Source: Candidatus Micrarchaeia archaeon (lineage in GTDB: Bacteria > Chloroflexota > Dormibacteria > Aeolococcales > Bog-877). Taken from it: a stretch of 64,000 nucleotides of DNA. The notes beneath the pieces were generated by a model. The model worked only from the letters and a program-made list of their open reading frames with translations, ran no database searches and was not told the origin of the DNA. The stretch spans positions 7,680 to 71,679 of the forward strand of contig DATLUG010000028.1 of the NCBI GenBank assembly GCA_035533215.1, given 5' to 3'. Made by a program: the position numbers and the translations under genes. Within the stretch, counting starts at the first letter, position 1. Each line of letters starts with the position of its first letter. Shown here piece by piece: positions 6,630 through 33,287 of this stretch.

Positions 6630-9600
6630 ATGGCGAAGGCCAGACGATCCGCGATCCAGTTCGGCACCATCATCGCCGGCAACTACCTGCCCTACGCGCG
6701 GGTGTTGGCGGCCTCGCTGGCGGTCTGGCATCCGGGCGCGCGGCTGCAGTGCCTCGTCATCGACGACCGCGAGGGCCGGGACCGGGGCGGCGAGCCGTCC
6801 TTCGACGTCCTCCACCTCGCCGACCTGGTCCGCGAGCCGGGCGAGCTGGAGCGGATGGCGATGTGCTACGACGTCATGGAGCTGGCCACCGCGGTCAAGC
6901 CGTGGCTGCTGCGGCACCTGCTCGAAAGGGGCGCCGCCGTCGCCGTCCACCTGGACCCCGACATCCTCTGCTTCGCCGAGCTCGACGAGGTGGAGGCCCT
7001 CGCGCGCGGCCACGGCATCGTCCTCACCCCCCACACCACCGAGCCGGTGCCCCGCGACGGGCGCAAGCCGACCGAGGCCGACCTGATGGAGACCGGCACC
7101 TACAACCTCGGCTTCGTCGCCGTCTCGCCGGCGGCGGCGCCGTTCCTCAGCTGGTGGCAGGTGCGGCTGCGGCGGGACGCGATCGTCGACCCCAAGGCGA
7201 TGCTGTTCACCGACCAGCGCTGGGTGGACCTGGTCCCCGGCTACTTCCCGGTGCACGTGCTGCGCGACCCCGGCTACAACGTGGCGTACTGGAACCTCGG
7301 CACCCGCACCATCGAACCGGCCGGGGACGGCTACACGGTGGGCGGCCGCCCGCTCCGGTTCCTCCACTTCAGCGGCTACGACCCCGACCGCCCCCACCTG
7401 CTCAGCCGCCACCAGGGCGAGCGCCCCCGGGTGCTCCTCTCCGAGCACCCGGTCCTGCGGCGGCTCTGCGACGACTACCGGCGGCGGCTCCTGCTGGCGG
7501 GCTACGGCGACCCCGACCTCCCCCGGTACGGGTACGGCCGGGTCCCCGGCGGCCCCCCCATCGACCGCCTGATGCGCCGGCTCTACCGCGTGGCCCTGCT
7601 CGCCAGCGAGGACGGCGGCCGCCCCGAGCCTCCCAACCCGTTCCGCCCCGGCGAGGCCCAGGCCTTCTGTGCCTGGCTGCGGGAGCCGGTGGGCGGCCCC
7701 GGCTCCCGCCTCACCCGCTACCTTGACTTCCTGTACCACGACCGGATCGACCTCCAGGTCGCGTTCAACGACGTGCCCGGCCCCGGGACCGAGTGGTTCC
7801 TCGGGTGGGCGCGCGACCACGGGGTCAGTGAGGAGGATCTGCCGGTGGAGCTGGTGCCGCCGCCGCTCGAGGCCGCGCCCGCCGACCCCGACGCCGCGTC
7901 CCTGCGGCGGCGTGCCGCCTCCTCGCGCGCCCCCCGCCCGGGGACCGCCGCGGCCGCCACCTGGCACGCGTTCGCGCCCCCCGGCCGCCGCCGGGCCGCC
8001 CCGGCGCGGCGGGTGCCGCCGACCGACGTCGGCGGCGGGGCCACCGGCCCCGACGACCCGGTCCAGGTGGAGGCGGACGGAGCGGTGGTGGCGACCGACC
8101 GGGGGCCGGGGCGGTCGTCCGCCCCCACCGTTCGCCGCCTCCCCGAGGGGGTCAACGTCGCCGGCTACCTGGAGGCCGACCTCGGTCTCGGGACGGCGGC
8201 CCGCGCGGTCCTCCGCGCGATCGAGCGGAGCGGGTCGGCGGTGGCGACGGTCGTGTACCGGGACACCCAGAGCCGCCAGTCGCGCCCGTTCGCCGCCCTG
8301 GTGGAGGGGGAGGCCCCCTACGACTGCAGCCTGGTCTGCATCAACGGCGACCTCCTCGGCAACTTCGCCCGCGATGCCGGCGCGGGCTTCTTCGAGGACC
8401 GCTACACGATCGCCCAGTGGCACTGGGAGACCGAGACCTTCCCGGCCTCGATGCGGGCCGGGCTCGGCTGGGTGGACGAGATCTGGGTCGCCAGCCGCTT
8501 CGAGCAGCAGGCGATGGAGCGCGAGACCGACAAGCCGGTGGTGGTGTTCCCGATGCCGGTGGTGGACGACGAGGCGGCGGCGCCGCTGGCCCTCCCCCGC
8601 GAGGCGCTCGGGCTGCCGCAGGGGTTCCTCTTCCTGTTCTGCTTCGACTTCCTCAGCGTCATGGAGCGCAAGAACCCGGTGGGGCTGGTGGAGGCCTTCG
8701 GCAGGGCCTTCCCGCCGGGGTCCGGCAGCCACCTGGTGATCAAGAGCATCAACGGGGAGCGCCGGCCGAACGAGCGCGAGCGGCTGCGGCTCGCCGCCGC
8801 GGCGCACACGGACGTCCGGCTGCTGGAGTCGTACCTGAGCGGGTCGGAGGTGCAGGCCCTCACCGCCACCTGCGACTGCTACGTCTCCCTCCACCGCTCC
8901 GAGGGGTTCGGGCTCACCCTGGCCGACGCGATGGCGGCGGGCAAGCCGGTCATCGCCACCCGGTACTCCGGCAACCTGGAGTTCATGTCCGACGAGACGG
9001 GCTACCTCGTCGACTGCACCCTGGTCCCGGTCGGGGACTCGGGCGCCCCCTACCCCCCCTCCCACCGCTGGGCTGAGCCCGACCTCGACGACGCCGCCCG
9101 GCTGATGCGCCTGGTGGTGGCCGACCCGGAGGCGGCCCGCGCCCGAGCCGCGCTCGGCCGGGCCGCCCTGCGCCGGCGCTTCACGACCGCGGCCTGCGCG
9201 GCGTTCGCGGCCGAGCGGCTGGCGGTGATCCGCGCCGCCCGGGCGCTGGCCCTGCCCCGAGAGCCGCTCGGGTGGCTGGACGCGGACGGCACCCGGCTCC
9301 CGGCCCCGCAGGAGCCGGCCCCGGCCGAGCCGGACCCGGCCGAGCCGGACCCGCCCGAGCCGGACCCGGGTGAGCCGGCTCCGCCCGACCGCTCCGAGGC
9401 CGACGGGCCGGCGGCTCCGGGTAACCCCGAGACCGCCGCGGCCGAGTCCTGGCCGGTGGGGGCCGGGCCGGTCGAGGAGGGAGAGCTGCCCGAGGTCGAG
9501 CCGGAGGGCGGCCGGCCGGACACGGTGGAGTCCGGGAGTCCGGAGGGGATGGGCGCCGACGGCCCTGAGATCCCGGAACCCGACGCCCTGCCGCCGGCTC

Positions 9601-10526
9601 CGGCCCCCGAGCCGCGGCCCGACCCCGAGCTCCCGCCCGAACCCGAGCCGGCGGCCGAGGACCGGGCCGCGGCTCCGGCTCCGGCGACCTCCGAGCCGAC
9701 CGCGGTCCCTCCGCTGCCGGTCGCCGAGGCGACCCAGCGGCTGGTCGCCTCGCGCGCGGTCGAGGCGGACCTCCCGCCCCGGGCGGGCCTGCGGGGCTGG
9801 GCGGCCGCCCTGGTCCGCCGCCGGGTGGACCGGCTGCTCGTCCCCTACGACCGCCGCCAGCGCGCGATCGCCGAGGCGCTGCTCACCTCGATCCGGGAGG
9901 TGGCGGGAACGGTGCCGGCGGCGGCCGACCTGGTGCACCGGCGGGTCGACGGCGCCGAAGCCCGCCGGGCGGCCCTGGGGGACCGGCTGGAGGGGTTGAC
10001 CGGCCAGCTCGACCGGCTCACCGGCCACGTCGACCGGCTCACCGGCCACGTCGGCGCGCTCGACCACGCCCTGGGCGGCCTCCGCGACGGCCTCAACGCA
10101 CGCATCGACGGCGTCGGCGGCCGGATCGACGGCCTCGGCGGCCGGATCGACGTGGCGACGGCGGGGCTGGGGACGATGACCGAGCACCTCGACCGGCTGA
10201 CCCGCCACGTCCAGGGGATCACGGTCCTGGTCGACCAGCTCAACGGCCGCACCGAGGGACTGGAGGCCCGCCAGGGCCGCATCCTGCTGCGGCACGACCG
10301 GCTCGCCAGCCGGGTCGATCGCACCGAGGACCTCGTCACCCACCTGGAGCGGGTCGAGCGCGAGCTGCTGCGGGCCCGGCGGGCGGCGGAGCGGCTGGTC
10401 GCCACGGCAGAGGCCGGGGGGTCCCTGCCGGCGCGTGGGGCGACCCCGGCGCCGCCCACGGGCGGCCCCCGGCCCCGCCGGCGGGCGCCGCGGCGGGGTC
10501 AGGGAGCGGGCCCCGACGCCAGCTGA
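6630..10526 (+). CDS. Giant bifunctional glycosyltransferase: an N-terminal GT-A-like domain with a DxD motif, a central GT4 (GT-B) domain, a Pro/Glu-rich linker and a C-terminal ~140-aa heptad-repeat coiled coil. Putative glycan polymerase.
   Basis: ATG at 6630 (MAKARRSAIQFG) preceded by GAGG. N-terminal domain has HLDPDILCF. GT4 signature EGFGLTLADAMAAGKPVIATRYSGNLEF. C-terminus is RLTGHVD/RLTGHVG/.../DGVGGRI/DGLGGRI heptads. The upstream part of track ORF 4425..10526 is antisense to the helicase and is non-coding. Confidence 0.85.
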   Translation: MAKARRSAIQFGTIIAGNYLPYARVLAASLAVWHPGARLQCLVIDDREGRDRGGEPSFDVLHLADLVREPGELERMAMCYDVMELATAVKPWLLRHLLERGAAVAVHLDPDILCFAELDEVEALARGHGIVLTPHTTEPVPRDGRKPTEADLMETGTYNLGFVAVSPAAAPFLSWWQVRLRRDAIVDPKAMLFTDQRWVDLVPGYFPVHVLRDPGYNVAYWNLGTRTIEPAGDGYTVGGRPLRFLHFSGYDPDRPHLLSRHQGERPRVLLSEHPVLRRLCDDYRRRLLLAGYGDPDLPRYGYGRVPGGPPIDRLMRRLYRVALLASEDGGRPEPPNPFRPGEAQAFCAWLREPVGGPGSRLTRYLDFLYHDRIDLQVAFNDVPGPGTEWFLGWARDHGVSEEDLPVELVPPPLEAAPADPDAASLRRRAASSRAPRPGTAAAATWHAFAPPGRRRAAPARRVPPTDVGGGATGPDDPVQVEADGAVVATDRGPGRSSAPTVRRLPEGVNVAGYLEADLGLGTAARAVLRAIERSGSAVATVVYRDTQSRQSRPFAALVEGEAPYDCSLVCINGDLLGNFARDAGAGFFEDRYTIAQWHWETETFPASMRAGLGWVDEIWVASRFEQQAMERETDKPVVVFPMPVVDDEAAAPLALPREALGLPQGFLFLFCFDFLSVMERKNPVGLVEAFGRAFPPGSGSHLVIKSINGERRPNERERLRLAAAAHTDVRLLESYLSGSEVQALTATCDCYVSLHRSEGFGLTLADAMAAGKPVIATRYSGNLEFMSDETGYLVDCTLVPVGDSGAPYPPSHRWAEPDLDDAARLMRLVVADPEAARARAALGRAALRRRFTTAACAAFAAERLAVIRAARALALPREPLGWLDADGTRLPAPQEPAPAEPDPAEPDPPEPDPGEPAPPDRSEADGPAAPGNPETAAAESWPVGAGPVEEGELPEVEPEGGRPDTVESGSPEGMGADGPEIPEPDALPPAPAPEPRPDPELPPEPEPAAEDRAAAPAPATSEPTAVPPLPVAEATQRLVASRAVEADLPPRAGLRGWAAALVRRRVDRLLVPYDRRQRAIAEALLTSIREVAGTVPAAADLVHRRVDGAEARRAALGDRLEGLTGQLDRLTGHVDRLTGHVGALDHALGGLRDGLNARIDGVGGRIDGLGGRIDVATAGLGTMTEHLDRLTRHVQGITVLVDQLNGRTEGLEARQGRILLRHDRLASRVDRTEDLVTHLERVERELLRARRAAERLVATAEAGGSLPARGATPAPPTGGPRPRRRAPRRGQGAGPDAS
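9981..10400 (+). repeat. Imperfect tandem 21-bp (7-codon) repeats encoding the C-terminal heptad array of the glycosyltransferase
   Basis: Consecutive 21-nt units, e.g. ggccagctcgaccggctcacc / ggccacgtcgaccggctcacc (19/21 identical) and gacggcgtcggcggccggatc / gacggcctcggcggccggatc (19/21 identical). At least 9 clear units span 9981..10170, with looser heptads continuing to ~10400. Confidence 0.7.
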
Positions 10527-10563: not shown

Positions 10564-11241
10564 GTGATCGCCCTCAAGGCCCCGGTCGGCGCCAAGCAGC
10601 GGCTGGCGGGGGTCCTGACCCAGTCCCAGCGCCGCCTGGTGGCGCTCGCGCTCGGGGCCCGCTGCCTGCGGTGCGCGATGCGGACCTGGCCAACAGGGCG
10701 GGTCGTGGTGGTGGGGGCGGGGGAGGAGGTCGCCGAGCTGGCGGCCCGCCACGGCGTTGGCGCGGTCCTCAGCGACCCCGGGTCCGGCCAGAGCGCGGCG
10801 GTCGCGATCGGCGCCCGCTGGGTGGTGGGCCAGGGGCTGGACCGCCTGGTCACGGTGGCCGGCGACCTGCCGGACGTGCGGGAGGACGACCTCCGGTGGC
10901 TGCGCCGGCTCGCCGAGGACCTCGGCGGCCCCGGGGTGGTGGCGGTGCCGGACACGGCCGGGACCGGCACCAACGCCCTCGTCGTCCGACCCGCGACCGC
11001 CGACGTGCTCGCCTTCGGCCCCGACTCCATCGCCCGGCACCGGGCCCGGGCGATGGCCCTGGGGCTGCCGTTCTCGGTCGCGGGGCGCCCGACCCTGGCC
11101 CGCGACTGCGACCGTCCCGAGGACCTCCGGGCGATCCTCGCCGGCGGGGATGGGGCGCTGCGGGGCCTGATCGACGGCGGGGGGCCCCCTACACTCGGTC
11201 GTGTGGCAACCCCGCCGCCTCCCGGCCGCGACCACCCCTGA
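10564..11241 (+). CDS. cofC: 2-phospho-L-lactate guanylyltransferase CofC/FbiD (F420 biosynthesis)
   Basis: LVIALKAPVGAKQRLAGVL... matches the CofC/MobA-like fold. GTG at 10564 with GGAG 8 nt upstream. Track ORF 10435..11241 is in the same frame. Confidence 0.65.
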   Translation: MIALKAPVGAKQRLAGVLTQSQRRLVALALGARCLRCAMRTWPTGRVVVVGAGEEVAELAARHGVGAVLSDPGSGQSAAVAIGARWVVGQGLDRLVTVAGDLPDVREDDLRWLRRLAEDLGGPGVVAVPDTAGTGTNALVVRPATADVLAFGPDSIARHRARAMALGLPFSVAGRPTLARDCDRPEDLRAILAGGDGALRGLIDGGGPPTLGRVATPPPPGRDHP

Positions 11242-11243
11242 CC

Positions 11244-12044
11244 GTGGCTCCCACCGTCACCGCTGAGCGGCTCCAGTGCTGGGCCGTCGGCGGCGTGGGC
11301 GAGGTCCTTCCGGGCATCGACCTCGCGGCCCACCTGGCGGCCCCGATCCGGGCGGCCGGCGGTCTTCGCCCCTGGGACGTCGTGGTGGTGACCCACAAGA
11401 TCGTCTCCAAGGCGGAGGGGCGCCTGGTGGAGCTGGGCACGGTCGAGCCCGGACCGGACGCCCTGCGGCTGGCGGACCAGGTCGGCAGCGACCCCCGCCT
11501 GGTGGAGGTGATCCTGCGGGAGACGCGCCGGGTGGTGCGGGCGGTGCCCGGGCTGCTGGTGGCCGAGACCCACCAGGGGCTGGTGTGCGCCAACGCCGGG
11601 GTCGACCGCAGCAACGTCGGCGGCGGCGGCCTGGCGAGCCTCCTGCCCGAGGACCCCGATGCCAGCGCCGACCGGCTCCAGCGAGCCTGGCTGCCGCTCG
11701 CGGGCGGCGGTCCCCTCGGGGTCGTCGTCACCGACACCTTCGGCCGCCCCTTCCGGGACGGCGGGGTCAACGTCGCCATCGGGGTCGCCGGGATGCCGGC
11801 GATGAGCGACCACCGCGGCGTCGAGGACCCCTACGGGTACCAGCTGCGGGTCTCCACCCTCGCCACCGCCGACGAGATCGCCGGCCTGGGGGAGCTGGTC
11901 ATGGGCAAGGTGGAGGAGCGGCCGCTGGCCGTGGTCCGCGGGCTCAGATGGGAGAAGGGGGCGGGGGACGGCGACGGCGGCGGAGCCGCGGCCGGAGCCC
12001 GCGCGCTGCAGCGGGATCCCGCCCGCGACGTGTTCCGGTGGTAG
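11244..12044 (+). CDS. cofE: Coenzyme F420-0:L-glutamate ligase CofE
   Basis: C-terminal 267 aa of track ORF 10671..12044: VVVTHKIVSKAEGR...GLVCANAGVDRSNVGGGG...VVVTDTFGRPFRDGGVNVAIGVAG is the CofE signature. GTG start is 3 nt after the cofC stop. Confidence 0.7.
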   Translation: MAPTVTAERLQCWAVGGVGEVLPGIDLAAHLAAPIRAAGGLRPWDVVVVTHKIVSKAEGRLVELGTVEPGPDALRLADQVGSDPRLVEVILRETRRVVRAVPGLLVAETHQGLVCANAGVDRSNVGGGGLASLLPEDPDASADRLQRAWLPLAGGGPLGVVVTDTFGRPFRDGGVNVAIGVAGMPAMSDHRGVEDPYGYQLRVSTLATADEIAGLGELVMGKVEERPLAVVRGLRWEKGAGDGDGGGAAAGARALQRDPARDVFRW

Positions 12045-12736
12045 GGGGGACGGCCGCCGCGCCGATCACGGTGCTGCTCTTCGCCGGGCTGCGCGAGCAT
12101 GCGGGCCAGGACCGCCTGGCGCTGGAAGCGACCACCGCCCCCATCGACGCCGCCGGGTGCTGGGAGCGGTGCTGCGCCCGATTCCCGGGCCTGGAGGAGG
12201 CGGCCGGCTCCAGGGCCAGCCTCCGGGTCGCCCGCAACCGCGAGCTGGTGGGATGGGATGCGGCCGTGCTCCCCGGCGACGAGCTGGCCTTCATGCCCCC
12301 GGTCTCGGGCGGGCGCGGTGACGGGGCCGAGGCGGGGCCGGTTCGGGTGCGGGTGGGCCCGGACCCGATCGACGTCGCCCAGCTGGCGGCGAGCCTGCCG
12401 GCGACCGGGGCGGGGGCCCGGGTCACCTTCTGCGGCATCGTGCGCGACCCCGACGACGGCCGCAGCGTCCCGTACCTCGACTACGAGGCCTACCAGGCGA
12501 TGGCGGAGGCGGAGTGCCGCCGCCTGGCCGAGGCCGCCGTGCGCGAGTGCGGGGCCCTGGCGGTCGCGGTCCAGCACCGGACCGGCCGGGTGGCGGCGGG
12601 GGAGCCGTCGGTGGCGGTGGTGGCGGTGGCCGCGCACCGCGGGGCCGCCTTCGAGGCCTGCTCGCGGGTGATCGACCGCTTGAAGGCCGAGGCGCCGATC
12701 TGGAAGCGGGTCGGCCCCCCGGCCACCCCCTGCTAG
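12038..12736 (+). CDS. moaDE: Molybdopterin synthase MoaD-MoaE fusion (ThiS-like sulfur carrier ending GG, fused to the catalytic subunit)
   Basis: ITVLLFAGLREHAG...ELAFMPPVSGG (MoaD with C-terminal GG) followed by VTFCGIVRD...YLDYEAYQAMAE (MoaE). Start is approximate (a GTG overlapping the cofE stop). Same frame as track ORF 11276..12736. Confidence 0.65.
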   Translation: MVGGTAAAPITVLLFAGLREHAGQDRLALEATTAPIDAAGCWERCCARFPGLEEAAGSRASLRVARNRELVGWDAAVLPGDELAFMPPVSGGRGDGAEAGPVRVRVGPDPIDVAQLAASLPATGAGARVTFCGIVRDPDDGRSVPYLDYEAYQAMAEAECRRLAEAAVRECGALAVAVQHRTGRVAAGEPSVAVVAVAAHRGAAFEACSRVIDRLKAEAPIWKRVGPPATPC

Positions 12737-12748
12737 ACTCGCGGGATC

Positions 12749-13609
12749 GTGGCCACGAAGGAATTCCTGGCCGTGCCGTCCGTCGGCGGGCCGGCGCGCG
12801 TCCCCCCCAGCGGCGCCCTGGCGCGCAATCGCGAGCTCCTGACGGAGCTGGTCCGGCGCGATGTCAAGGCCCGCTACCGGGGCTCGGCCCTGGGCGTGCT
12901 CTGGTCGCTGCTCAACCCGCTCCTGTTCATGGCCGTCTACACGGTCGTGTTCTCGGTCCTGCTGGCCGCGGTCTACCCCGGCGGCGTCCCCGCCGCCGCC
13001 TACATCCTGACCGGTCTCCTGGTCTGGAACTTCTTCAGCCAGGCGGTGAGCTTCGCCACCTCCAGCGTGCTGAGCAACTCCGGCCTGGTGCGCAAGGTGG
13101 CGTTCCCCTGGGTGCTGCTCACGGTCTCCTCGGTGACCGCGGCCCTGGTCAACTACGTCATCAGCCTGGTCCTGCTGATCCCGATCTACATCATCTTCCA
13201 CCTGCCGGTGGGGCTGCCGATGCTGCTGCTGCCGGTGCTGGTGGTGATCCCGTACGTGCTGGCGCTGGGGGTGGGCCTGCTGCTGGCCGCCGGCAACGTG
13301 TTCTTCCGCGACCTGGAGCACCTGGTCCAGGTGGGCCTTTTGGTCTGGCTCTACCTCACCCCGATCGTGTATCCACCCAATCTGGTCGCCCAGCACGACC
13401 ACGGCCTCGGCGGTCACGTCTTCTCCCTCTTCTTCAAGTTCAACCCGATGACGTGGGTGATCGGCGCGATGGAGAACGTCGTCACCCGCGGGCTCTGGCC
13501 GATCCACTGGCACGGGCTGGTCTATGCGGCGTTCGTGGCGGCGGTGCTGCTGGCGCTCGGCATCGTGGTCTTCCAGCGCGCCCGGCGACGGTTCGCGGAG
13601 GAGGTCTGA
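12749..13609 (+). CDS. wzm: ABC-2 type polysaccharide export permease (Wzm/KpsM/TagG family)
   Basis: 286 aa with 6 predicted TM helices. Conserved N-terminal ELLTELVRRDVKARYRGSALGVLWSLLNPLL motif of ABC-2 permeases. Confidence 0.85.
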   Translation: MATKEFLAVPSVGGPARVPPSGALARNRELLTELVRRDVKARYRGSALGVLWSLLNPLLFMAVYTVVFSVLLAAVYPGGVPAAAYILTGLLVWNFFSQAVSFATSSVLSNSGLVRKVAFPWVLLTVSSVTAALVNYVISLVLLIPIYIIFHLPVGLPMLLLPVLVVIPYVLALGVGLLLAAGNVFFRDLEHLVQVGLLVWLYLTPIVYPPNLVAQHDHGLGGHVFSLFFKFNPMTWVIGAMENVVTRGLWPIHWHGLVYAAFVAAVLLALGIVVFQRARRRFAEEV

Positions 13610-22178: not shown

Positions 22179-22186
22179 GTGCCAGT

Positions 22187-23980: not shown

Positions 23981-24095
23981 CTCGCTCGACCGCGAGGACG
24001 AGGCAGGAGCCCTCACCTCGCGAGGGCTGCACCCCATCCCGCCGATCCGGGTCTGCTCGGCCCCATCCAGAGATGCCGCCGAGCAGAGCCCGCGG

Positions 24096-26739: not shown

Positions 26740-26830
26740 TGGGGCCCGGCCGACCGTGGCTCACGGACGGGGCGGCCGACCGCAGGGGGCCCCGCCCGGA
26801 GCGCCCGCCGCGGGCCTGGGCCCGGTCCCG

Positions 26831-27937
26831 ATGCGGATCCTGATCCTCAACTGGAAGCACCCCGCCGACCCGGCCGCCGGCGGGGCAGAGCGGTACGTCG
26901 CCCGGGTGGCCGTCAACTGGGCCCGCCTCGGTCACGCGATCACCCTGTTCGTGCCCCGGCCGGGCCCGGGCGGGGACCCGCGGGCGACGCCGATGGCGGG
27001 GGTGCGGGTCGTGACCCGGGGGACCCGGTCGACCGTGTTCGGTCACGCCCGCCGGTACCTGCGCCGCCGCGGCTCCGATTTCGACCGGGTGCTGGAGTCG
27101 GTCAGCACCCGGCCGTTCTTCGCCCACGAGCTGGTCGGCGACCGATCCCTGGTCCTCTACTACCAGCTCGCCGGCGAGGTGTGGGGCCAGGAGTTCCGGT
27201 TCCCGCTGAGCTGGCTCGGGCGGCGGGTGGTGGAGCCGCACTGGCTCCGTCGCCTCGCCCCGGCCAGGGTGGCCACGATCTCGGCCTCGACGGCGGCCGA
27301 CCTCCGGGCTCGGGGGATCGTCCCGGTCGCGATCGTCCCCCCCGGGGTCGACGAGGTGGGCGGCGCCTGGGACGGCGAGATCGGCACGTCCCCGCGGATC
27401 GCGTTCGTCGGTCGCCTGGTCCGCACCAAGCGGCCGCTGGACGCGCTCTCGGCCTTCGCGACCGTCCGCTCGGCCTTCCCGCTGGCCACCCTGGACGTCA
27501 TCGGCGACGGCTACCTGCACCGCCGGCTGCGCGCCCTGCGCGCGCCCGGGGTGACGGTCCACGGCTTCGTGCCCGAGGCGGCCAAGGTCGAGCTGCTGCG
27601 GCGGGCCCACCTCCTCCTCCTCCCCGGGACCAGGGAGGGATGGGGGATCGTCGCCATGGAGGCGGCGATGTGCGGTCGGCCGACCGTCGGGTACGACATC
27701 CCCGGGGTGCGGGACGCCGTCCAGGACGGGGTCACCGGGGTGCTGACCGAGCCCGGGCCCCGGCAGCTGGGCAACGCCGCCGCGGCGCTCCTGGCGGACC
27801 CCGCGCGCTGGCGGCAGCTGGCGCGGGCGGCCGCCGGGCGCGCGCGCGAGTTCACCTGGGACCACTCGGCCGAGCGCCTGCTGACCCTCCTGACCGCCGC
27901 GCCGGCGCCCCCGTCCCACTGCTCGCCGGCGGCGTGA
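26831..27937 (+). CDS. Family 4 glycosyltransferase
   Basis: MRILILNWKHPADPAAGGAERYV...REGWGIVAMEAAMCGRPTVGYDIPGVRDAV is the GT4 EX7E-type motif. ATG at 26831; the track ORF starts at 26756. Confidence 0.8.
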   Translation: MRILILNWKHPADPAAGGAERYVARVAVNWARLGHAITLFVPRPGPGGDPRATPMAGVRVVTRGTRSTVFGHARRYLRRRGSDFDRVLESVSTRPFFAHELVGDRSLVLYYQLAGEVWGQEFRFPLSWLGRRVVEPHWLRRLAPARVATISASTAADLRARGIVPVAIVPPGVDEVGGAWDGEIGTSPRIAFVGRLVRTKRPLDALSAFATVRSAFPLATLDVIGDGYLHRRLRALRAPGVTVHGFVPEAAKVELLRRAHLLLLPGTREGWGIVAMEAAMCGRPTVGYDIPGVRDAVQDGVTGVLTEPGPRQLGNAAAALLADPARWRQLARAAAGRAREFTWDHSAERLLTLLTAAPAPPSHCSPAA

Positions 27938-30900
27938 CCGGCACCGACGCGCCCGCCGCGGCCCCGGGGGCCGCCGGCAGCGGCCCCGGGCGGCCCGCCG
28001 CCTGGCTCCCCGGTCTGCGCTGGGTTCTCGGCACCGTCGGCGTGGTCAGCCTGCTGGCCCTCGGGGTGCTCCGGGCCACCGGGCTGACCGCACTCCTCGG
28101 CGCCGCCGCCCTCGTCGCCCTCGCCTCCCTGGCGCTCGCCGCGCTGGCCCAGGCGGTGGAGGCGGCGTCCGCCCGGCGGGGCGGCTTCCCCACCGCCATG
28201 CGACGCCACCGGGCCAGCCAGGGGACGAGCGCCCGGGCCTGGCGCCTCACCGCCCTCGCCGTCGGGCTGCTGGCGGCAGCCGCCTGCCAGACCTGGTTCC
28301 GCGCGGGCACGGTCATCGCCAGCGGCGACCTCACCCCGCCCGACGGCACCGGCTGGATCGTCCATCTGTTCTCGCCGTGGGCCTGGTCCGGGTCCAACCT
28401 CGGCGGCCCCAGCGCGCTGGCGACCCAGCTCCCCTGGGCGGCGGTGCTGGCGGTGGTCCATCACCTGGGCGGCTCCGCCGCGATCGCCCAGCGGGTGTGG
28501 CTGACGCTCCTCTTCACCGGGGCCGCCCTGGCGGCGCTCGGCTGCCTGCGGGCGCTGGGGCTGCTCCCGGTCCCGGCCGCGGTGGGCGCCTTCGTCTACG
28601 TCCTCAACCCCTATGTGCTGACCGAGGTGGGCGTGAACTCCGTCTACCTGGCGGCGCTGCTGCTGCTGCCGCTGCTGGTGGGCCTGGTCGTCAGCGCCGC
28701 CACCGGACGCCGGCGGATCCGCACCACCGCGGTGTGGATGGCGGCGACCGCCCCCCTGCTCGGGGTCGCCGACCTGAACCCGCCCCTGGTCGGCATGCTC
28801 GGACTGGCGGTGCTGGGCGCGGCCGGGCTCGCCCCCTGGCTGGGGGGCCGGCGGGCCGGGGCGCGGGCGGTGCGGCTGCTGGCGCTGGCGATCCCCCTGA
28901 CCGTGGTCAGCTCCGCCTACTGGCTGGTGCCGACCCTGCTCCAGCTCACCGCCGTCCCCACCGCATCCCTCGCCGGGGTCGCCGCCTGGGCCTGGACCGA
29001 GGGGCGGGCGACCGTGGCCAACGCCTTCTGGCTGAACACCACCTGGGCCTGGCCGTATCCCGAGTACTTCCCCTTCGCCCCCGGCTACGCCGAGGTCCCG
29101 CTGGTGGTGCTGAAGTTCCTCCTGCCGGCCACAGGGTTCGCCGCCCTGCTGGGACCCCGCCTCCGGCCGGGGACCGACGCGCGCGAGGTCCGCCGCCTCC
29201 GGCTCACCGCCGCCGCCGCGCTGGCGGCGCTCCTCGTCATCCTGCTGAGCACCGGCACCCAGCCCCCCGGGGCCCTCCTCTTCGACGCCCTCTACCGGCT
29301 GCCGTACGGCTGGCTCCTGCGCGAGCCGGGCCGCTTCCTGATGGTGGTGGGGCTGGCCTACGGGGTGCTGGTGGGGGCGGCGGTGCAGGTGCTCCTGCGC
29401 AGCCGCGTCCTCAGCTCCTGGCGCCTGTCCCTCTCCGCCGGCCGGCTGCTCCCGCCCGCGGTCGGGCTGGTCGCCGCCGCCGTGACCGCCGCCATCCCCG
29501 GATTCCCGCTCCTTCTCGGCAGCGTGGTGCCGGACCAGCGGCCGGTCCTCCCCCCCGCCCACGTCCGGGTCCCCGGCTGGTGGTACGGGATGGCGGCCTA
29601 CCTCAACCGGGGCGCCCCCCAGGGACGGGTGCTGATGCTCCCCCCCGACGACTTCTACCAGATGCCGTACACCTGGGGCTACTACGGCACCGACGGCTTC
29701 ATCACCGACATGGTGAGCCGGCCGGTCCTGGACCCGACCGGCCAGGGGTACACGCCCGCCACCGCCGACCTGCAGCAGGCGGTGGTGGCGGTGGCGACGA
29801 GCCTCGTCGACCACCGCTGGCGCACCGCCCGATCGCTCCTCGCGGCGCTCGGCACCCAGCTGGTCCTGGTGAGGGGCGACGTCGCCTTCCGGTTCCCGGG
29901 CCGGGACATCATCTCCCCGGTCCGCCTCGACGCCGCCCTGGCGCGGGACCCCCTGATGACGCTGGCACACCGCGACGGCGCGCTCCGCCTCTACGCGGCC
30001 GCGGCGACCGCCCTCGGCCCCAGCGTCGCGGCCCATCTCGCGACCGTCGACACCCGCTCGCCCGACCTGCGGGTGCTGCCGGTCCTGGCCGCGGGCACCG
30101 CGGTCGTCACCCACCGGCCGATCCCGGGGGTGGTCTCGGTCCGGCAGCTGCCGCCGTACCGCGACTGGACGGTCCGGGGGCGCAGCCCCGAGCTCACCGT
30201 GGCGACCCAGCCGGGACGCCGATACCGGCTGTGGGGCCTGGCCGGCGGCGGCCCGGAGGCGATCCCTCGGACCTCGCGGTCCGGCCCCCGCCGGGCTCGC
30301 ACCACCCTCGCCGCCACCTGGTCGCCGCATCGGTCCGTGCTGCGGCTGACCGTGTCCGGCGGCCCCGAGCTCCTCCGCGACGGCGGCTTCGCCCGCGGCC
30401 CGTGGCAGCGCCGGGTGGGCAGCTGCACGACGGCTCCCGGCGCTGCCACGAAGGAGCTCGCCGGGAGGGTCATCCCCGGCGGCGGCCCGGGCGGCAGCCC
30501 GGCCCTCCAGCTGCGGGCGCCGCCCTCAGCCGGGACGGCCTGCGAGGCGCAGCGCTTCCCGTGGTCGGGAGGGCCGCTGTGGGTCCGCCTCTGGGTGCGC
30601 CACCAGCAGGGCCGCGCCCCCCGCATCTGCCTGTGGCAGTACGTCAGCCGCCAGTGCACCGCGATGCCCGCCCTCCCCGCCGGCGGGGGCTGGCGCCGCT
30701 ACAGCACGGTGGTGGCGCCGACACCGGGAAACCGGCTGGGGCTCTTCCTGTATGCGGACGGGGTGCCGGGACGGTCGGCGACGGTCGCCGAGTACGCCCT
30801 CGTGTCGGTGACGCCGGTGGCGGCCCCCTCGGTGCTGGACCTGGTCGGCACCCCGGTGGCCCGGCCCTCCGCCCACCCGTCGCTTCTGGTCCAGCCCCAG

Positions 30901-31128
30901 GCATACAGCCGCCGCTGGACCGGCCCGAGCGGGTCCCGCCACGTCCTGGTCGACGGCCTCGTCAACGGCTGGCTGGAGCGGGGCCGGCCCCGGCGGGGAC
31001 CGGTCGCGTACCCGGCGGCGCGCCTCGTCCGCCTGGGCCAGTCCGCTTCCGCCCTCTGCTGGCTGGCGATCGCGCTCGCCGCCGGGCTCGCATCGGCGTG
31101 GTCCCGAAGGGGAGGCCGGTGGGGCTGA
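27934..31128 (+). CDS. Large (~1064 aa) polytopic membrane protein with a C-terminal soluble domain; candidate GT-C-type polymerising or branching glycosyltransferase (AftD/DUF3367-like architecture)
   Basis: GTG at 27934 with a GTGA overlap on the GT4 stop. At least 12 TM helices in the first ~600 aa, then a large extracytoplasmic domain. Part of track ORF 27181..31128; the AftD-like assignment rests on size and topology only. Confidence 0.6.
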   Translation: MTGTDAPAAAPGAAGSGPGRPAAWLPGLRWVLGTVGVVSLLALGVLRATGLTALLGAAALVALASLALAALAQAVEAASARRGGFPTAMRRHRASQGTSARAWRLTALAVGLLAAAACQTWFRAGTVIASGDLTPPDGTGWIVHLFSPWAWSGSNLGGPSALATQLPWAAVLAVVHHLGGSAAIAQRVWLTLLFTGAALAALGCLRALGLLPVPAAVGAFVYVLNPYVLTEVGVNSVYLAALLLLPLLVGLVVSAATGRRRIRTTAVWMAATAPLLGVADLNPPLVGMLGLAVLGAAGLAPWLGGRRAGARAVRLLALAIPLTVVSSAYWLVPTLLQLTAVPTASLAGVAAWAWTEGRATVANAFWLNTTWAWPYPEYFPFAPGYAEVPLVVLKFLLPATGFAALLGPRLRPGTDAREVRRLRLTAAAALAALLVILLSTGTQPPGALLFDALYRLPYGWLLREPGRFLMVVGLAYGVLVGAAVQVLLRSRVLSSWRLSLSAGRLLPPAVGLVAAAVTAAIPGFPLLLGSVVPDQRPVLPPAHVRVPGWWYGMAAYLNRGAPQGRVLMLPPDDFYQMPYTWGYYGTDGFITDMVSRPVLDPTGQGYTPATADLQQAVVAVATSLVDHRWRTARSLLAALGTQLVLVRGDVAFRFPGRDIISPVRLDAALARDPLMTLAHRDGALRLYAAAATALGPSVAAHLATVDTRSPDLRVLPVLAAGTAVVTHRPIPGVVSVRQLPPYRDWTVRGRSPELTVATQPGRRYRLWGLAGGGPEAIPRTSRSGPRRARTTLAATWSPHRSVLRLTVSGGPELLRDGGFARGPWQRRVGSCTTAPGAATKELAGRVIPGGGPGGSPALQLRAPPSAGTACEAQRFPWSGGPLWVRLWVRHQQGRAPRICLWQYVSRQCTAMPALPAGGGWRRYSTVVAPTPGNRLGLFLYADGVPGRSATVAEYALVSVTPVAAPSVLDLVGTPVARPSAHPSLLVQPQAYSRRWTGPSGSRHVLVDGLVNGWLERGRPRRGPVAYPAARLVRLGQSASALCWLAIALAAGLASAWSRRGGRWG

Positions 31129-32159
31129 GCGGCACCGGCGGCCCCGGCGGGGCCGCCCCCGGCCCCCCGGCGGTGTCGGTCATCATCGTCAACTTCGAGG
31201 GCGGTGACGACCTGCTGCGCTGTCTCGCCTCGCTGGAGCGGCAGAGCGGCGTCGCCGAGGTGGTGCTGGTCGACAACGGCTCCGAGGACGGGTCGTGCCG
31301 GCGGGCGCTGGCGCTCCACCCAGCGGTGCGGGTGGTGGGTGAGGGCGCCAACCGCGGGTTCGCCGGCGGGGCCAACCTGGGCGCCGCCCACGCCCACCAC
31401 GACGTGCTGCTGTTCCTCAACCCCGACGTGCGGCTCGAGGACGGCTGCGTCGCCGAGCTGGCGCGGGCGCTGGTCGCCCCGGTCGCGGTGGCGGGGCCGG
31501 TCCTGGCGGTCGAATCCAGTGGTGCCCGTGAGCACGGCGGCACGATCAACCATCTCGGCATGCCGATGGCGATCGCCCAGGGGGCGATGCCGCTGTATGT
31601 CTCCGGCTGCGCGCTGGCCACCCTCCGTGACACCTTCGTCCGCCTCGGCGGCTTCGACCAGCGGTACTTCCTGTTCGTGGAGGACGTCGAGTACTGCTGG
31701 CGTGCCCTCAACGCGGGTGGCGACGTGGTGGTCGCCCCCGCGGCTGCCGCCTGGCACCGGGGCGGGGGTTCGGCCCCGGGCGGCTACCTCCGCCCCGGCC
31801 GCGCCTATGTCACCTCCGAGCTGCGGATCGCCCTGCGCGAGCGCAACACCGTCGCCATGATGCTCGCCTGCGCGCCGTGGTGGTGGCTGCCGGTCGTCAT
31901 CCCCGCCCTGGTGGTGCGCGCGCTCGGCCTGGCGGCGGTGTCGGTGGGGCTCCGCCGGCCCGCCCTGGCCCGCTCCCTGGTCGGCGGCCTGGGCTGGAAC
32001 GCTAGCCAGCTGCCGGCCAGCTGGGGCCGCCGCCGCACCTCCCCGCGGCTCCGGGCGGGGGAGCGGGCGGGCCGCCGGCGGGTGGTCAGGCGGGCGCTCC
32101 TGCTCCGGACCCTGCTGGCCCACGGCCTGCCCCGGATCGCGAGGGGGAGCGGGGGGTGA
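31119..32159 (+). CDS. Family 2 glycosyltransferase
   Basis: VSVIIVNFEGGDDLLRCLASLERQ...VVLVDNGSEDGS...NRGFAGGANLGA...LFLNPDVRL. Start is uncertain: GTG at 31119 (GGAGG 3 nt upstream) or GTG at 31173. Confidence 0.7.
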   Translation: MGLSGTGGPGGAAPGPPAVSVIIVNFEGGDDLLRCLASLERQSGVAEVVLVDNGSEDGSCRRALALHPAVRVVGEGANRGFAGGANLGAAHAHHDVLLFLNPDVRLEDGCVAELARALVAPVAVAGPVLAVESSGAREHGGTINHLGMPMAIAQGAMPLYVSGCALATLRDTFVRLGGFDQRYFLFVEDVEYCWRALNAGGDVVVAPAAAAWHRGGGSAPGGYLRPGRAYVTSELRIALRERNTVAMMLACAPWWWLPVVIPALVVRALGLAAVSVGLRRPALARSLVGGLGWNASQLPASWGRRRTSPRLRAGERAGRRRVVRRALLLRTLLAHGLPRIARGSGG

Positions 32160-32192
32160 CCGGCACCGGTCCCGGCGATCGCTCCGCTGCGG

Positions 32193-33287
32193 TCATCGCC
32201 CGGTGCCGGGCCGCTGCGACGACTCCAGGATCGCGGCCGGCACGCCCGCGCCGTGGGGCCGGGCCAGGGTGAGGGTCGCGGCCAGGGACTCGGAGCTGCC
32301 CCGGGCGGCTGGCACCGCGCCGGACAGGTGCCGGAGGGCCGACAGCGCCCACGGCGCCGCCGGCGAGGAGAGCAGGCGGTCGCGCCACTCGGCGGTCGGC
32401 GCGACCGGGCGCAGGTCCTCCCCCAAGAGCGGCGGCCGGACCGCCGTCGGTCGATCCTCCGGGCTGGTGCGCCGCGACCAGCGGGTGTACCGGCTGAAGT
32501 CCACCTGGTGGAGGTCGCAGCCGGCCCGACGGGCCGCCGACGCCAGTCCCGCTTCGCTGATCCAATGGGCGTGGACGGGCGGGGGGTCGGTCTGCCAGAC
32601 TGCCCGCCCGGGCCACACCGAGCGGTTCGGCGTCGACAGCACCAGCTGGCCCTGGGGCGCCAGCCATCCCGCCAGCCGGGTGAGGAACGCCACCGGGTCC
32701 TCGACGTGCTCGACGATCTCCAGCGCGACGATGAGGTCGGGGGCCACCGGCAGCTGCGATGCGGGTCGGCTGAGGTCGGTGACGGCGTACCAGGGCCCGA
32801 AGACCCTGGTCGCCTCCGCCACCGCCACCGCCGAGACGTCGACGCCGTGGCTGGCGATCCCCTCGGCCCGCAGGGCGGCGGTGAGGTAGCCGAGCCCGCT
32901 GCCCACCTCCACCACCTGCAGCTGCCGGCGCCGGGGATGGGTGCGCACCACCTCGCGCACCGCCCAGTACATGTCCTCGCAGCGCGCCAGCGCCAGCAGG
33001 GGACGGCGACCGCGCCGCACCAGGGTGGCGTACCGCGCGTAGCGGTGATAGCCGGGCAGCCGCTCCCGGGTGCGATAGATGGCGTCGTACAGGCCGGGGA
33101 TGGCGGGCGCTCCGCGGGCGGACTGCGATCGGCAGGCCCGGCACTCCCACACCCGGGCCTCGCCGCCGGACACGTATGCGGGGATGCGGCCACGGGGTTC
33201 CAGGCGGTCGCCGCCGCACAGGGCGCAGGCAGCGGGTGCGCCCCCGCCGAGGGTGGCGTCTTCGCTCCCGCCCTCGTTCCGGGGCAC
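32193..33287 (-). CDS. Class I SAM-dependent methyltransferase with an N-terminal C4 zinc ribbon
   Basis: CALCGGDRLEPRG...WECRACRS is the zinc ribbon. LQVVEVGSGLGYLTAALRAEGIASHGVDVS is SAM-binding motif I, and LIVALEIVEHVEDP is the motif II region. Confidence 0.75.
   Translation of the reverse strand: MPRNEGGSEDATLGGGAPAACALCGGDRLEPRGRIPAYVSGGEARVWECRACRSQSARGAPAIPGLYDAIYRTRERLPGYHRYARYATLVRRGRRPLLALARCEDMYWAVREVVRTHPRRRQLQVVEVGSGLGYLTAALRAEGIASHGVDVSAVAVAEATRVFGPWYAVTDLSRPASQLPVAPDLIVALEIVEHVEDPVAFLTRLAGWLAPQGQLVLSTPNRSVWPGRAVWQTDPPPVHAHWISEAGLASAARRAGCDLHQVDFSRYTRWSRRTSPEDRPTAVRPPLLGEDLRPVAPTAEWRDRLLSSPAAPWALSALRHLSGAVPAARGSSESLAATLTLARPHGAGVPAAILESSQRPGTGR

Follow-up and report, generated by a model that had tools for sequence, protein, structure and literature searches.

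Core genes of the locus

The window, a 64,000-nucleotide stretch of DNA whose closest genomes are Candidatus Dormibacterota MAGs, carries between positions 6630 and 33287 genes for a giant glycosyltransferase, a Wzm/Wzt exporter, further glycosyltransferases and membrane proteins, and a five-gene cassette (coordinates are on the plus strand unless marked otherwise). Nearly everything that an earlier sequence-only reading listed lies where it was placed, as Pfam and NCBIfam searches bear out. The three GT4 genes that it counted are two stand-alone genes (24096-25565, minus strand; 26756-27937) and a domain of the giant protein, and the genes of the ~27-kb locus are not contiguous but interspersed with cofC, cofE, a MoaD-MoaE fusion, a TetR regulator, an epimerase and a 4-TM ORF. 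The actinobacterial frame that it implied was wrong, given the Dormibacterota affiliation.

The giant protein (6630-10526, 1298-1300 aa) is a two-module glycosyltransferase and, judging from its Pfam GT4 match, homologues and synteny, a candidate polymerase. Of its four parts, the N-terminal GT8/GT24-like domain of retaining type (6630-7830), which has no Pfam model, shows a GT-A fold, a DxD motif and, further along, a His; together with the GT4 domain at aa 683-860 (Pfam), it agrees with the multi-module polymerase that had been proposed. These are followed by a low-complexity Pro/Glu-rich linker (aa ~881-1030, 9264-9713), evident from the translation and from 15/30-nt tandem repeats at 9300-9388 (Pro+Gly fraction 0.34-0.41), and by a heptad-repeat coiled coil of ~180 aa (aa ~1077-1260, 9852-10403), with a hydrophobic periodicity of 3.5 residues (z up to 13 relative to shuffled sequences), tandem repeats of 21 nt (7 aa) at 9999-10061 and 10085-10152, and weak matches to coiled-coil families. 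The homologues number more than 1840; members of the family directly adjoin ABC-2/ABC_tran pairs in unrelated phyla, and orthologues in Dormibacterota contigs (66-69% identity) hold the corresponding position in their loci. Among the 120 best homologues, at least 54, or about half, have a Methyltransf_23/MetW methyltransferase after the coiled coil. Such a coiled coil marks ruler-controlled, terminated ABC pathways, the terminator lying at its distal end (PMC11231755), a rule that the arrangement in these homologues fits. Length control is thereby more strongly supported than the earlier reading knew, and overall a length-controlled, cap-gated ABC route is supported. The giant protein of the window has no terminator or methyltransferase domain distal to its coiled coil, and the ruler logic is therefore incomplete here.

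Wzm (12749-13609) is an ABC-2 permease (PF01061, 68 bits) with the galactan Wzm/RfbD permease as its best NCBIfam match, below cut-off. Wzt (13609-14841) joins an ABC_tran ATPase to a C-terminal extension of ~165 aa (aa 246-410, 14344-14838). The carbohydrate-binding domain (CBD) predicted for this extension is genuine: Wzt_C matches above threshold (39.5 bits, cut-off 30.4, aa 266-391; Pfam), and a profile of nine orthologues matches the Aquifex Wzt CBD (8dky/6o14, E 1.6e-14) and, more weakly, those of Raoultella (5hno, 0.019) and E. coli O9a (2r5o, 0.057). The closest solved relatives of the Wzm/Wzt pair are TarH/TagH and Aquifex Wzt, the nucleotide-binding domain matching TarH 6jbh (E 3e-65) and Aquifex Wzt 8dku (E 2e-62), which upholds the ABC-transporter-dependent route. 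The wzm stop overlaps the wzt start, and an in-frame ATG at 14841 overlaps the wzt stop and couples GT2a translationally to wzt; these overlaps, previously read as ATGA, are both TGATG.

GT2a (14841-16187, PF00535), a soluble Leloir GT2 and candidate adaptor or chain glycosyltransferase, gives weak rhamnosyltransferase/MftF/EpsD-like NCBIfam matches and is conserved in four contigs (L001, L003, L089 and L093). The protein of 672 aa encoded downstream (16218-18236), which combines a Pro-rich N-terminus with a ~10-TM domain and belongs to an unannotated family, had been overlooked and proves to be a GT-C. Its best structural match is AftB, with about equal resemblance to Pmt and STT3; the two most conserved loop motifs of the family are altered in the three Dormibacterota orthologues, which makes its activity uncertain. 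The GtrA-like protein (20511-21023, minus strand; PF04138, 74.8 bits) is, as had been claimed, a small membrane protein of that family and a candidate lipid-linked sugar flippase or synthase partner, kept beside the GT4 gene in both L089 and L093. That gene, GT4w (24096-25565, minus strand; PF13692, 29.9 bits), encodes a divergent core GT4 with orthologues 79-81% identical in L089 and L093; two copies stand beside Wzt in L004, and a hairpin (24049-24090) lies past the stop in the window.

Two relatives, L089 and L093, keep the core: the giant gene, cofC-cofE-moaDE, wzm, wzt with its CBD, GT2a, the 672-aa GT-C gene, GtrA and GT4, Wzt being 85-88% and its CBD 79-84% identical to those of the window. 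The core is conserved in L001 as well, and since its order recurs in three other contigs, the clustering is not due to chance. The embedded housekeeping genes cofC, cofE and the moaD-moaE fusion (10564-12736; NCBIfam, Pfam MoaE and ThiS) are not glycan genes; by NCBIfam equivalog models CofC (106.4 bits, cut-off 105) and CofE (235 bits, cut-off 181) are true F420 proteins, and the three genes occur in identical order in L001, L002, L005, L089 and L093. The presence of F420 and molybdopterin genes between the giant gene and wzm counts against a glycan locus as the best explanation. An accessory insert of a TetR regulator, an NAD-dependent epimerase/reductase (HpnA-like) and a 4-TM ORF (18282-20489; Pfam, NCBIfam, hydropathy) is missing at the corresponding position in L089 and L093. 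A further insert of ~3 kb (21.0-24.1 kb), without a clear codon-position signal, contains a gene for a secreted collagen-like protein (22187-22954, minus strand; signal-peptide-like N-terminus, GPxGPx repeats), whose counterpart in the sister contig L085 is a called gene of 255 aa; in the window a hairpin (22146-22182) lies directly past the stop. The N-terminal module of the protein is common to a 337-aa collagen-like protein adjoining the GT4 gene in L093.

A strain-variable cassette

The cassette opens with a GT2 (25861-26739; PF00535, 68.5 bits) whose best NCBIfam matches are PpgS, ArnC, AglJ and PgfS, all far below cut-off, in line with its proposed likeness to polyprenyl-phosphate sugar synthases. 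GT4b follows (26756-27937; Glycos_transf_1, 93.7 bits, and Glyco_transf_4), and its stop overlaps the start of the third gene as GTGA, here as earlier described. This gene (27934-31128) encodes a 1064-aa protein that had been likened to AftD and is a GT-C of that family (PF11847, 38.8 bits, cut-off 26, aa 167-653), with 11 N-terminal TM segments, a soluble domain of ~500 aa and one C-terminal TM segment by hydropathy. It has no match among PDB sequences at E<=1 and was found solely in a 99% sister contig and in identical JGI fragments. GT2b (31098-32159), an MftF/EpsD/rhamnosyltransferase-like Leloir GT2 with a hydrophobic C-terminal part (Pfam, NCBIfam, hydropathy), completes the three GT2 genes of the earlier reading. 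The fifth gene (32193-33287, minus strand) encodes the zinc-ribbon class I SAM methyltransferase of that reading (Methyltransf_23, Pfam); its family, 16 detectable members in an incomplete protein search, conserves the ribbon (CxxC..CxxC) and the motifs LYDAIY, GSGLGYLT and STPNR. The syntenic stretch has neither the AftD-like operon nor the methyltransferase gene in L089 and L093, and the variability foreseen for the glycosyltransferase set is borne out. We infer that the cassette is an accessory module with which this strain decorates or extends the polymer by means of lipid-linked sugar donors.

Comparison with known systems

The locus resembles the systems of E. coli O9a and Klebsiella O3, O12, O4 and O7 (WbdD, WbbB, ORF6-O7) in its ABC-2 exporter, ATPase with Wzt_C, multi-module glycosyltransferase, extended coiled coil in a biosynthesis protein and overlapping wzm-wzt-GT genes. 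It departs from them in that the coiled-coil protein has two GT modules (GT8-like and GT4) and no terminator domain, the kinase and Kdo transferase are absent from the locus, and the CBD matches well to Aquifex but weakly to E. coli O9a (E 0.06) and Raoultella (0.02). The host is probably a monoderm of Terrabacteria (PMC10608941) and would hence, unlike these organisms, lack LPS. The S-layer cluster of Geobacillus stearothermophilus (wzm-wzt-wsaE) is likewise an ABC-dependent glycan system, of Gram-positive type, with overlapping codons of wzm, wzt and the next GT gene. WsaE unites a methyltransferase with two GT domains, equivalent to modules combined in relatives of the giant protein, although in these relatives the methyltransferase is C-terminal, past the coiled coil, and in the window protein it is absent; the window also lacks a Wzy_C-type O-oligosaccharyltransferase and rml genes. 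The GT8-like module recurs in Klebsiella O2a WbbM, a bifunctional galactan polymerase; the partner module in the window is GT4 rather than GT111/DUF4422, and O2a has neither CBD nor ruler, whereas the window has a CBD and a coiled coil.

Mycobacterial arabinogalactan assembly (Wzm/Wzt RfbD/RfbE, GlfT1/2, AftA-D/Emb, PpgS-Rv3632-Rv3779) shares the order of cytoplasmic polymerisation, ABC export and extracytoplasmic GT-C elaboration with polyprenyl-phosphate sugars, as well as an AftD-family GT-C, a second GT-C with AftB as best structural match, and a PpgS-like GT2 with a GtrA-family partner. The window host, however, is not an actinobacterium, DPA pathway genes and a GlfT-type galactofuranosyltransferase are missing from the window, its AftD-like protein has no sequence match to solved AftD, mycobacterial Wzt (RfbE) has no CBD, and the GT-C cassette is accessory here and essential in mycobacteria. 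Three-component systems of extracytoplasmic glycosylation (GtrA/B/V, GacI-L, CsbB-GtcA-YfhO, GT136) have in common with the window a GT2 resembling lipid-sugar synthases, a small membrane protein of the GtrA family and a transferase of GT-C type, in a set that varies among strains. The cassette differs from them by its additional GT4, second GT2 and methyltransferase, by a GtrA encoded 5 kb away in the conserved core, and by a GT-C that is of the large AftD type and includes a soluble domain of ~500 aa.

Assembly model and alternative explanations

The locus is a fairly ordinary surface sugar-polymer gene cluster, but a genuine one. It probably represents a chromosomal cell-envelope glycan locus of an uncultured soil Candidatus Dormibacterota bacterium, with a conserved core, a strain-variable cassette and export by the ABC route. 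Domain identities, folds, gene order, and conservation as against variability emerge directly from the analysis, and from these we infer the substrates, the sequence of reactions, the role of the coiled coil as ruler and what forms the cap, taking the core mechanism from the characterised ABC-transporter-dependent pathway. The glycan would be assembled on a polyprenol carrier at the cytoplasmic face by the giant enzyme (GT8-like retaining GT-A and GT4), GT2a and the divergent GT4, with the ~180-aa coiled coil as a putative scaffold or ruler. Wzm/Wzt would export the completed chain, the CBD admitting solely chains whose end bears a specific epitope. On the outer side of the membrane, the 672-aa GT-C and GtrA may modify the exported product or the acceptor, and the cassette (the PpgS/ArnC-like GT2, GT4b, AftD-family GT-C, GT2b and methyltransferase) may decorate or extend it from lipid-linked donors, much as three-component systems do in serotype conversion and GT-C enzymes in the assembly of the mycobacterial wall. 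Domain searches of the window found no initiating phosphoglycosyltransferase, no LCP or WaaL-type ligase, and no sugar-nucleotide pathway save one epimerase-like gene; these absences are points against the best explanation.

In the sequence-only reading, the zinc-ribbon methyltransferase was a candidate terminator, which would O-methylate the non-reducing end to give a methyl cap read by the Wzt CBD. A CBD on Wzt does imply a terminal cap (PMC11231755), stand-alone or fused methyltransferase terminators are known (WsaE, PMC2943079; WbdD, PMC3482155), and the family usually lies near glycan genes. The enzyme could also act in trans, docked on the terminator-less coiled coil, filling the gap where about half of the close giant homologues have a fused domain. 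We nevertheless consider this role unlikely, since the enzyme belongs to the accessory cassette rather than to the core, it is missing at the syntenic locus of L089 and L093 despite their closely similar Wzt and CBD, and none of the 16 family members found comes from these assemblies (the relatives are MAG contigs, and beyond the syntenic stretch the absence is that of the incomplete protein search). None of the other contexts recovered for the family shows Wzm/Wzt among its called genes; one is a Wzx/Bac_transf locus and one is devoid of glycan genes. Moreover, its similarity to the domain fused to giant homologues is at superfamily level only (26-28% identity over ~114 aa), it has no coiled coil of its own, and the solved structures nearest to it are those of O-methyltransferases acting on small molecules, UbiG for example, with no WbdD chain among the 60 matches listed. 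The substrate of the methyltransferase is most likely a sugar that the cassette makes or adds, and a core glycosyltransferase more likely supplies the residue that the CBD reads as the conserved cap.

Alternatively, the locus could combine two pathways that are independent of each other, the core polymer leaving through Wzm/Wzt and the cassette making a separate glycolipid or lipoglycan like mycobacterial LM/LAM, primed by GT4 at the cytoplasmic face and extended outside by the GT-C. The cassette is indeed a self-contained overlapping operon, gained or lost en bloc when compared with L089 and L093, with its own cytoplasmic GT4 and GT2, which a simple side-chain three-component system would not need. 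It is inserted, however, within the glycan locus, flanked by the core GT4 on one side and housekeeping genes on the other, a typical site for a modification cassette, and it brings no flippase with it, the sole GtrA being a core gene; we regard this scheme as possible but improbable. Less probable still than a methyl cap is protein glycosylation, in which the 672-aa GT-C would transfer the exported glycan or single sugars to the secreted collagen-like protein, in the manner of S-layer or BclA-type glycoproteins. Collagen-like proteins with the common N-terminal module adjoin the core GT4 in the window and in L093, the GT-C is as similar to Pmt and STT3 as to AftB, and an ABC-exported, capped S-layer glycan in a monoderm provides precedent (PMC2943079); yet the argument is one of co-location, L089 has no collagen-like gene at the corresponding place, and those O-oligosaccharyltransferases that are known from such systems belong to the Wzy_C rather than the GT-C type (PMC2943079). 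Finally, the slightly better match of the nucleotide-binding domain to TarH/TagH than to Wzt could point to a TagGH-type exporter of a teichoic-acid-like polyol-phosphate polymer. This is very improbable, as the window has no CDP-glycerol, CDP-ribitol or TagF-type genes, the C-terminal domain belongs with the Wzt-type CBDs, and the linked enzymes are all sugar transferases.

Gene content of the locus

The proposal made from sequence alone, that an envelope glycan is polymerised, capped and exported here by an ABC transporter, is partly supported: the ABC route, the carbohydrate-binding domain (CBD), the polymerase and the variability stand, and the methyl-cap terminator does not. Because the window has a G+C content of ~76%, raw ORF lists are mostly noise, and genes were called via codon-position G+C and cross-checked with Pfam and NCBIfam. 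The genes named in the sequence-only reading were found in this way at 6.6-33.3 kb. They comprise the gene for a giant protein of 1300 aa with a GT4 domain (6630-10526), an ABC-2 permease (wzm, 12749-13609; PF01061), an ABC ATPase with a C-terminal Wzt_C domain (wzt, 13609-14841; PF00005, Wzt_C 39.5 bits against a cut-off of 30.4), three GT2 genes identified by Pfam or NCBIfam (GT2a, 14841-16187; a second at 25861-26739; GT2b, 31098-32159), GtrA (20511-21023, minus strand), a 1064-aa GT-C_AftD protein above the Pfam threshold (27934-31128), and a Methyltransf_23 protein with an N-terminal CxxC...CxxC ribbon (32193-33287, minus strand). Two of the three GT4 genes that had been counted stand alone by Pfam (24096-25565, minus strand, and 26756-27937), but a third stand-alone GT4 is absent, the remaining GT4 being a domain of the giant protein. 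Overlooked at that stage were a 672-aa membrane protein directly after GT2a (16218-18236) and, at 18.3-20.5 kb, a TetR gene, an epimerase-like gene and a 4-TM ORF.

The overlaps put forward as translational coupling exist, but not all with the sequence claimed: GT4b (26756-27937) and the AftD-like gene do overlap by GTGA, whereas the wzm/wzt junction, where the genes share 1 nt, and the wzt/GT2a junction read TGATG and not ATGA, the latter only if GT2a is taken to start at an in-frame ATG, position 14841. The stretch from the giant gene to wzm is occupied by cofC and cofE, both of which exceed their NCBIfam equivalog cut-offs, and a MoaD-MoaE fusion gene. This block (10564-12736) is found immediately 5' of wzm-wzt in all Dormibacterota contigs examined (L001, L002, L005, L089 and L093), a linkage that is stable down to 61% Wzt identity and places F420/molybdopterin genes beside a glycan exporter. 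Within the 64-kb window, Pfam and NCBIfam revealed neither an initiating transferase nor a ligase nor a sugar-nucleotide pathway, and scans for Rfam families and tRNAs gave no matches.

A Wzm/Wzt exporter with a carbohydrate-binding domain

The ATPase core resembles TarH (E 3e-65) and Aquifex Wzt (E 2e-62) about equally among solved structures; export of a teichoic acid by a TagGH system was considered and rejected, there being no polyol-phosphate genes in the window. An ABC-2 permease adjoining, and here overlapping, a Wzt/TagH-clade ATPase is a feature of Wzm/Wzt export and supports the proposed ABC-transporter-dependent route. The 165-aa extension of the Wzt protein returned only noise when searched alone against the PDB as a single sequence. 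A profile built from nine orthologous extensions, in turn, matched the CBD of Aquifex aeolicus Wzt (8dky/6o14) with an E value of 1.6e-14, the Raoultella CBD (5hno) at 0.019 and the E. coli O9a CBD (2r5o) at 0.057. Together with the Pfam Wzt_C match, this similarity to known CBDs confirms that the extension is of the carbohydrate-binding type, as had been suggested, and the first of the outcomes named as refuting the proposal, a lack of such similarity, did not arise. In all characterised terminated systems the Wzt CBD binds the terminal residue, and only capped chains are admitted (PMC11231755); by analogy, the CBD predicts that the Wzt encoded here is a cap-gated exporter.

The giant protein as a candidate polymerase

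Pfam recognises only the central GT4 domain of the giant protein and has no match for its N-terminal ~400 residues (6630-7830), a domain that is conserved in more than 1840 proteins (P0017-P0136 among them). An AlphaFold2 model of this domain (pLDDT 91) adopts a GT-A fold and is predicted to be closest to the retaining GT8/GT24 enzymes. The family has an invariant DPD motif with an HFSG motif downstream, and the features of a retaining GT8-like GT-A enzyme, namely the fold, a DxD and a downstream His, are all present. The GT4 domain is followed by a Pro/Glu-rich linker of ~150 aa and then by ~180 residues of heptad repeats (aa ~1077-1260), which appear in the DNA as 21-nt tandem repeats and in the protein as a 3.5-residue hydrophobic periodicity (z up to 13 relative to shuffled sequence). 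No terminating enzyme lies distal to this coiled coil, and the protein finishes with a short basic tail.

Among the 120 best homologues of the giant protein, at least 54 carry a C-terminal class I methyltransferase after the helical region (P0029, P0046, P0052 and P0022 are examples), and others either have an extra GT4 at the end or stop once the two GT modules are complete. In Dormibacterota, all four orthologues, that of the window among them, keep the coiled coil and have nothing beyond it. The family thus occurs as GT8-like-GT4, with an added coiled coil, with a coiled coil and a methyltransferase, or with a second GT4. Its genes adjoin ABC-2/ABC_tran pairs in a Gaiellaceae contig and one further contig, and two more neighbourhoods are rhamnose-type glycan loci. 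According to a published generalisation, terminated ABC-dependent pathways involve a coiled-coil protein whose terminator sits at the end remote from the polymerase modules (PMC11231755), and Geobacillus WsaE joins a methyltransferase to two GT domains (PMC2943079), a combination comparable to that of the giant family. Since the architectures in the family agree with both, it is reasonable to regard the giant protein as the polymerase, its activity being assigned by analogy, and the wider GT8-like-GT4-coiled coil(-methyltransferase) family looks like a widespread polymerase, ruler and terminator in one polypeptide. The earlier suggestion of a multi-module polymerase therefore holds, with a predicted GT8-like GT-A fold, a GT4 domain and a coiled coil in one protein, and length control is better supported by the ~180-residue coiled coil than by any evidence originally cited for it.

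On contig L087, a Wzt-like ATPase of 442 aa (13621-14949) lies next to a methyltransferase-bearing homologue of the giant gene; its C-terminal extension gives weak methyltransferase-family matches and not Wzt_C.

A conserved core and a variable cassette

Two contigs with related loci, L089 (GCA_035532155.1) and L093 (GCA_027313425.1), have the same ordered core as the window, consisting of the giant gene, cofC, cofE, moaDE, wzm, wzt with Wzt_C, GT2a, the 672-aa protein, GtrA and a divergent GT4, and downstream of it the SDR, enoyl-CoA hydratase and trypsin-PDZ genes that also follow it in the window. Identity to the window's protein is 85% and 88% for Wzt, and 79% and 84% for the CBD. The syntenic stretch in both contigs lacks the TetR-epimerase block, the GT2-GT4-AftD-like-GT2 operon and the zinc-ribbon methyltransferase. 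The absence of this operon matches the variability of the glycosyltransferase set that had been predicted.

The window also has ~3 kb between GtrA and the core GT4 (21030-24090, G+C 71%) with no clear codon-position signal, the corresponding spacing in L089 and L093 being 114-144 bp. A repeat search found no terminal repeats of a mobile element around 21.0-24.1 kb. Inside the stretch is a gene for a collagen-like secreted protein (22187-22954, minus strand), after which comes a hairpin (22146-22182); in L093 this N-terminal module recurs in a collagen-like protein of 337 aa, encoded on the opposite side of the GT4 gene.

The zinc-ribbon methyltransferase and the chain terminator

The zinc-ribbon methyltransferase (32193-33287) had been proposed to make the chain-terminating methyl cap, which now seems unlikely. 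In the WbdD/WsaE class of terminators the methyltransferase is joined to a coiled coil or to polymerase modules, whereas this enzyme is a stand-alone protein of 364 aa without a coiled coil or a polymerase fusion. Its nearest solved relatives, whether searched as a single sequence or as a family profile, are UbiG-type small-molecule O-methyltransferases, and no WbdD chains occur among the PDB matches listed for either search. The strongest argument comes from comparison: the enzyme is missing from the L089 and L093 loci despite the conserved CBD. Its family, which numbers 16 proteins at E<=1e-5 and shares a conserved zinc ribbon and the motifs LYDAIY, GSGLGYLT and STPNR, was seen in four other contexts: once with GT2 and transposase genes nearby, once adjoining GT2 and epimerase genes, once in a Bac_transf/Wzx-type polysaccharide locus, and once in a neighbourhood with no glycan genes. 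Wzm/Wzt was absent from the called genes in all four, so that the methyltransferase is not co-conserved with a CBD-bearing exporter. A CBD as well conserved as that of Wzt should recognise a cap whose enzyme is conserved too, and the most fitting place for the methyltransferase is therefore in the strain-variable cassette. Because its family accompanies glycan genes, it could well methylate sugars.

A "Rosetta stone" relationship, in which the methyltransferase would be a C-terminal domain split off from the giant family, was rejected, as the identity to the domain fused to giant homologues is 26-28% over ~114 aa, reflecting similarity of the core fold only. The methyltransferases near giant homologues in contig L095 are unrelated to the zinc-ribbon enzyme, and a Methyltransf_11 gene at the equivalent junction of L089 has no counterpart in the window.

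Predicted GT-C enzymes and proposed extracytoplasmic steps

The 672-aa protein has no sequence match in Pfam, NCBIfam or the PDB, and its family profile finds none in the PDB either. A word-indexed search yielded three homologues, and an exhaustive HMMER search with the membrane domain (16830-18233) yielded at least 752 cluster representatives (P0140-P0287 among them), in none of which a Pfam family covers this domain. The AlphaFold2 model (pLDDT 92) is predicted to have a GT-C fold, and the family shares the motifs VNVxxxD(Q/E)W, LWAQHNENR, SS(L/F)QGLxxWPxG and SRY(T). In the first outer loop, the family Asp (48 of 51 sequences) aligns to an Arg in the 672-aa protein, with an Asp one position on, and the HNEN motif is replaced; the two loop motifs that the wider family conserves best are both altered in the three Dormibacterota orthologues. 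The protein is thus a predicted GT-C that, given these altered motifs, may or may not be catalytically active. The GT-C fold and the conserved nearby GtrA (PF04138, 74.8 bits) indicate that the core already has the predicted membrane parts for extracytoplasmic glycosylation, and GtrA and the two GT-C proteins of the locus would provide the small membrane protein and the transferase of a three-component extracytoplasmic glycosylation system.

The second of these, the AftD-like protein, matches PF11847 with 38.8 bits (cut-off 26), aa 167-653 corresponding to profile positions 56-513 of 661, and its hydropathy gives a polytopic N-terminus, a large soluble domain and a C-terminal TM, as in the AftD family. 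With the profile above threshold and the topology as expected, the AftD-type assignment could be retained. The protein matches no PDB sequence, solved AftD included, at E<=1, DPA-pathway genes are absent from the window, and a metagenome scan for relatives returned two 100%-identical fragments and nothing else. The GT2 at 25861-26739, in the same operon as the AftD-like gene, resembles hexose/HexNAc lipid-sugar synthases, its best NCBIfam matches being the sub-threshold PpgS (46 bits against a cut-off of 370), ArnC and AglJ. Judged by these similarities, the cassette supplies an AftD-family GT-C and a candidate polyprenyl-phosphate sugar synthase.

Host lineage and proposed pathway

A scan of the genome collection with Wzt returned Candidatus Dormibacterota MAGs as the closest relatives (82, 61, 60 and 55% identity), with remoter matches in Actinomyces, Acidimicrobiales and Chloroflexota, and the same locus was found on a 164-kb ENA contig at 99% protein identity. 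The actinobacterial frame implied by the original comparison with AftD is therefore wrong. Dormibacterota are a sister lineage to Chloroflexota, inside the largely monoderm Terrabacteria (PMC10608941), which makes a wall-, lipid- or protein-linked glycan more likely as the product of the locus than an LPS O antigen. One protein of L089 (GCA_035532155.1, DATKRN010000059.1) carries the NCBI label Verrucomicrobiae; the contig is nonetheless syntenic with Dormibacterota contigs at 65-90% protein identity, and the label may reflect misassigned taxonomy or faulty binning.

The analysis establishes domain identities, folds and the division into core and accessory genes, and analogy with the Klebsiella/E. 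coli, Geobacillus and mycobacterial systems suggests substrates and an order of steps. The giant protein, GT2a and the core GT4 would assemble the glycan on a cytoplasmic polyprenol carrier, some conserved activity would cap the chain, and Wzm/Wzt would export it, gated by the CBD. Outside the membrane the 672-aa GT-C and GtrA would then act, and in the strain of the window the cassette might decorate or extend the product further. A bolder version appears very improbable to us, namely that the core is an undescribed Dormibacterota pathway in which a terminator-less coiled-coil polymerase is capped in trans (a split ruler and terminator), the 672-aa GT-C, from a new family, transfers the product, or sugars, to the collagen-like protein or the wall, and the AftD-type cassette gives serotype-like variation outside Actinobacteria.

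Candidatus Dormibacterota is an abundant soil phylum without cultured members, and to our knowledge nothing is known experimentally about its cell envelope. As the first dissected envelope-glycan locus for this uncultured phylum, the region offers a gene-level picture of the envelope, in which a putatively cap-gated, ABC-exported glycan would be acted upon by GT-C enzymes outside the membrane and would vary between strains. It also brings out two large families missing from domain libraries, the GT8-like domain of the giant protein (>1840 homologues) and the GT-C family (at least 750 cluster representatives). The underlying principles are all known already from Klebsiella, E. coli, Geobacillus and mycobacteria, and the value of the locus thus lies in annotation and comparison and not in new concepts.

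Flanks of the locus

The locus is flanked on the left by an SNF2 helicase and on the right by a PIN toxin, beyond which come genes for fatty-acid metabolism and proteases; the remainder of the window holds housekeeping genes. A partial DUF2079 gene at the left edge gives a weak Pfam match below threshold, and in L001 a DUF2079 homologue lies ~2 kb upstream of the giant gene. The interval between the DUF2079-like and giant genes (1235-6497) contains a PIN/Phd toxin-antitoxin pair, a 725-aa orphan protein and the SNF2-family helicase, none with a counterpart in L001, where the interval is shorter; PADLOC gave generic BrxH/DrmD/ZorD-like matches for the helicase and nothing more. Toxin-antitoxin pairs are also found at further variable junctions, at 33.8-34.3 kb in the window and between the GT-C and GtrA genes in L093. 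Two trypsin-PDZ (HtrA-like) paralogues are in tandem at 36536-38842, as they are in L089. The longest ORFs at 58200-61900 (~3.7 kb) have no Pfam matches, and the codon-position caller found no genes there; beyond them, at the right end of the window (61945-63686), is a second ABC-2 pair (ABC_tran and ABC2_membrane, ATPase first) that is unrelated to the glycan locus.
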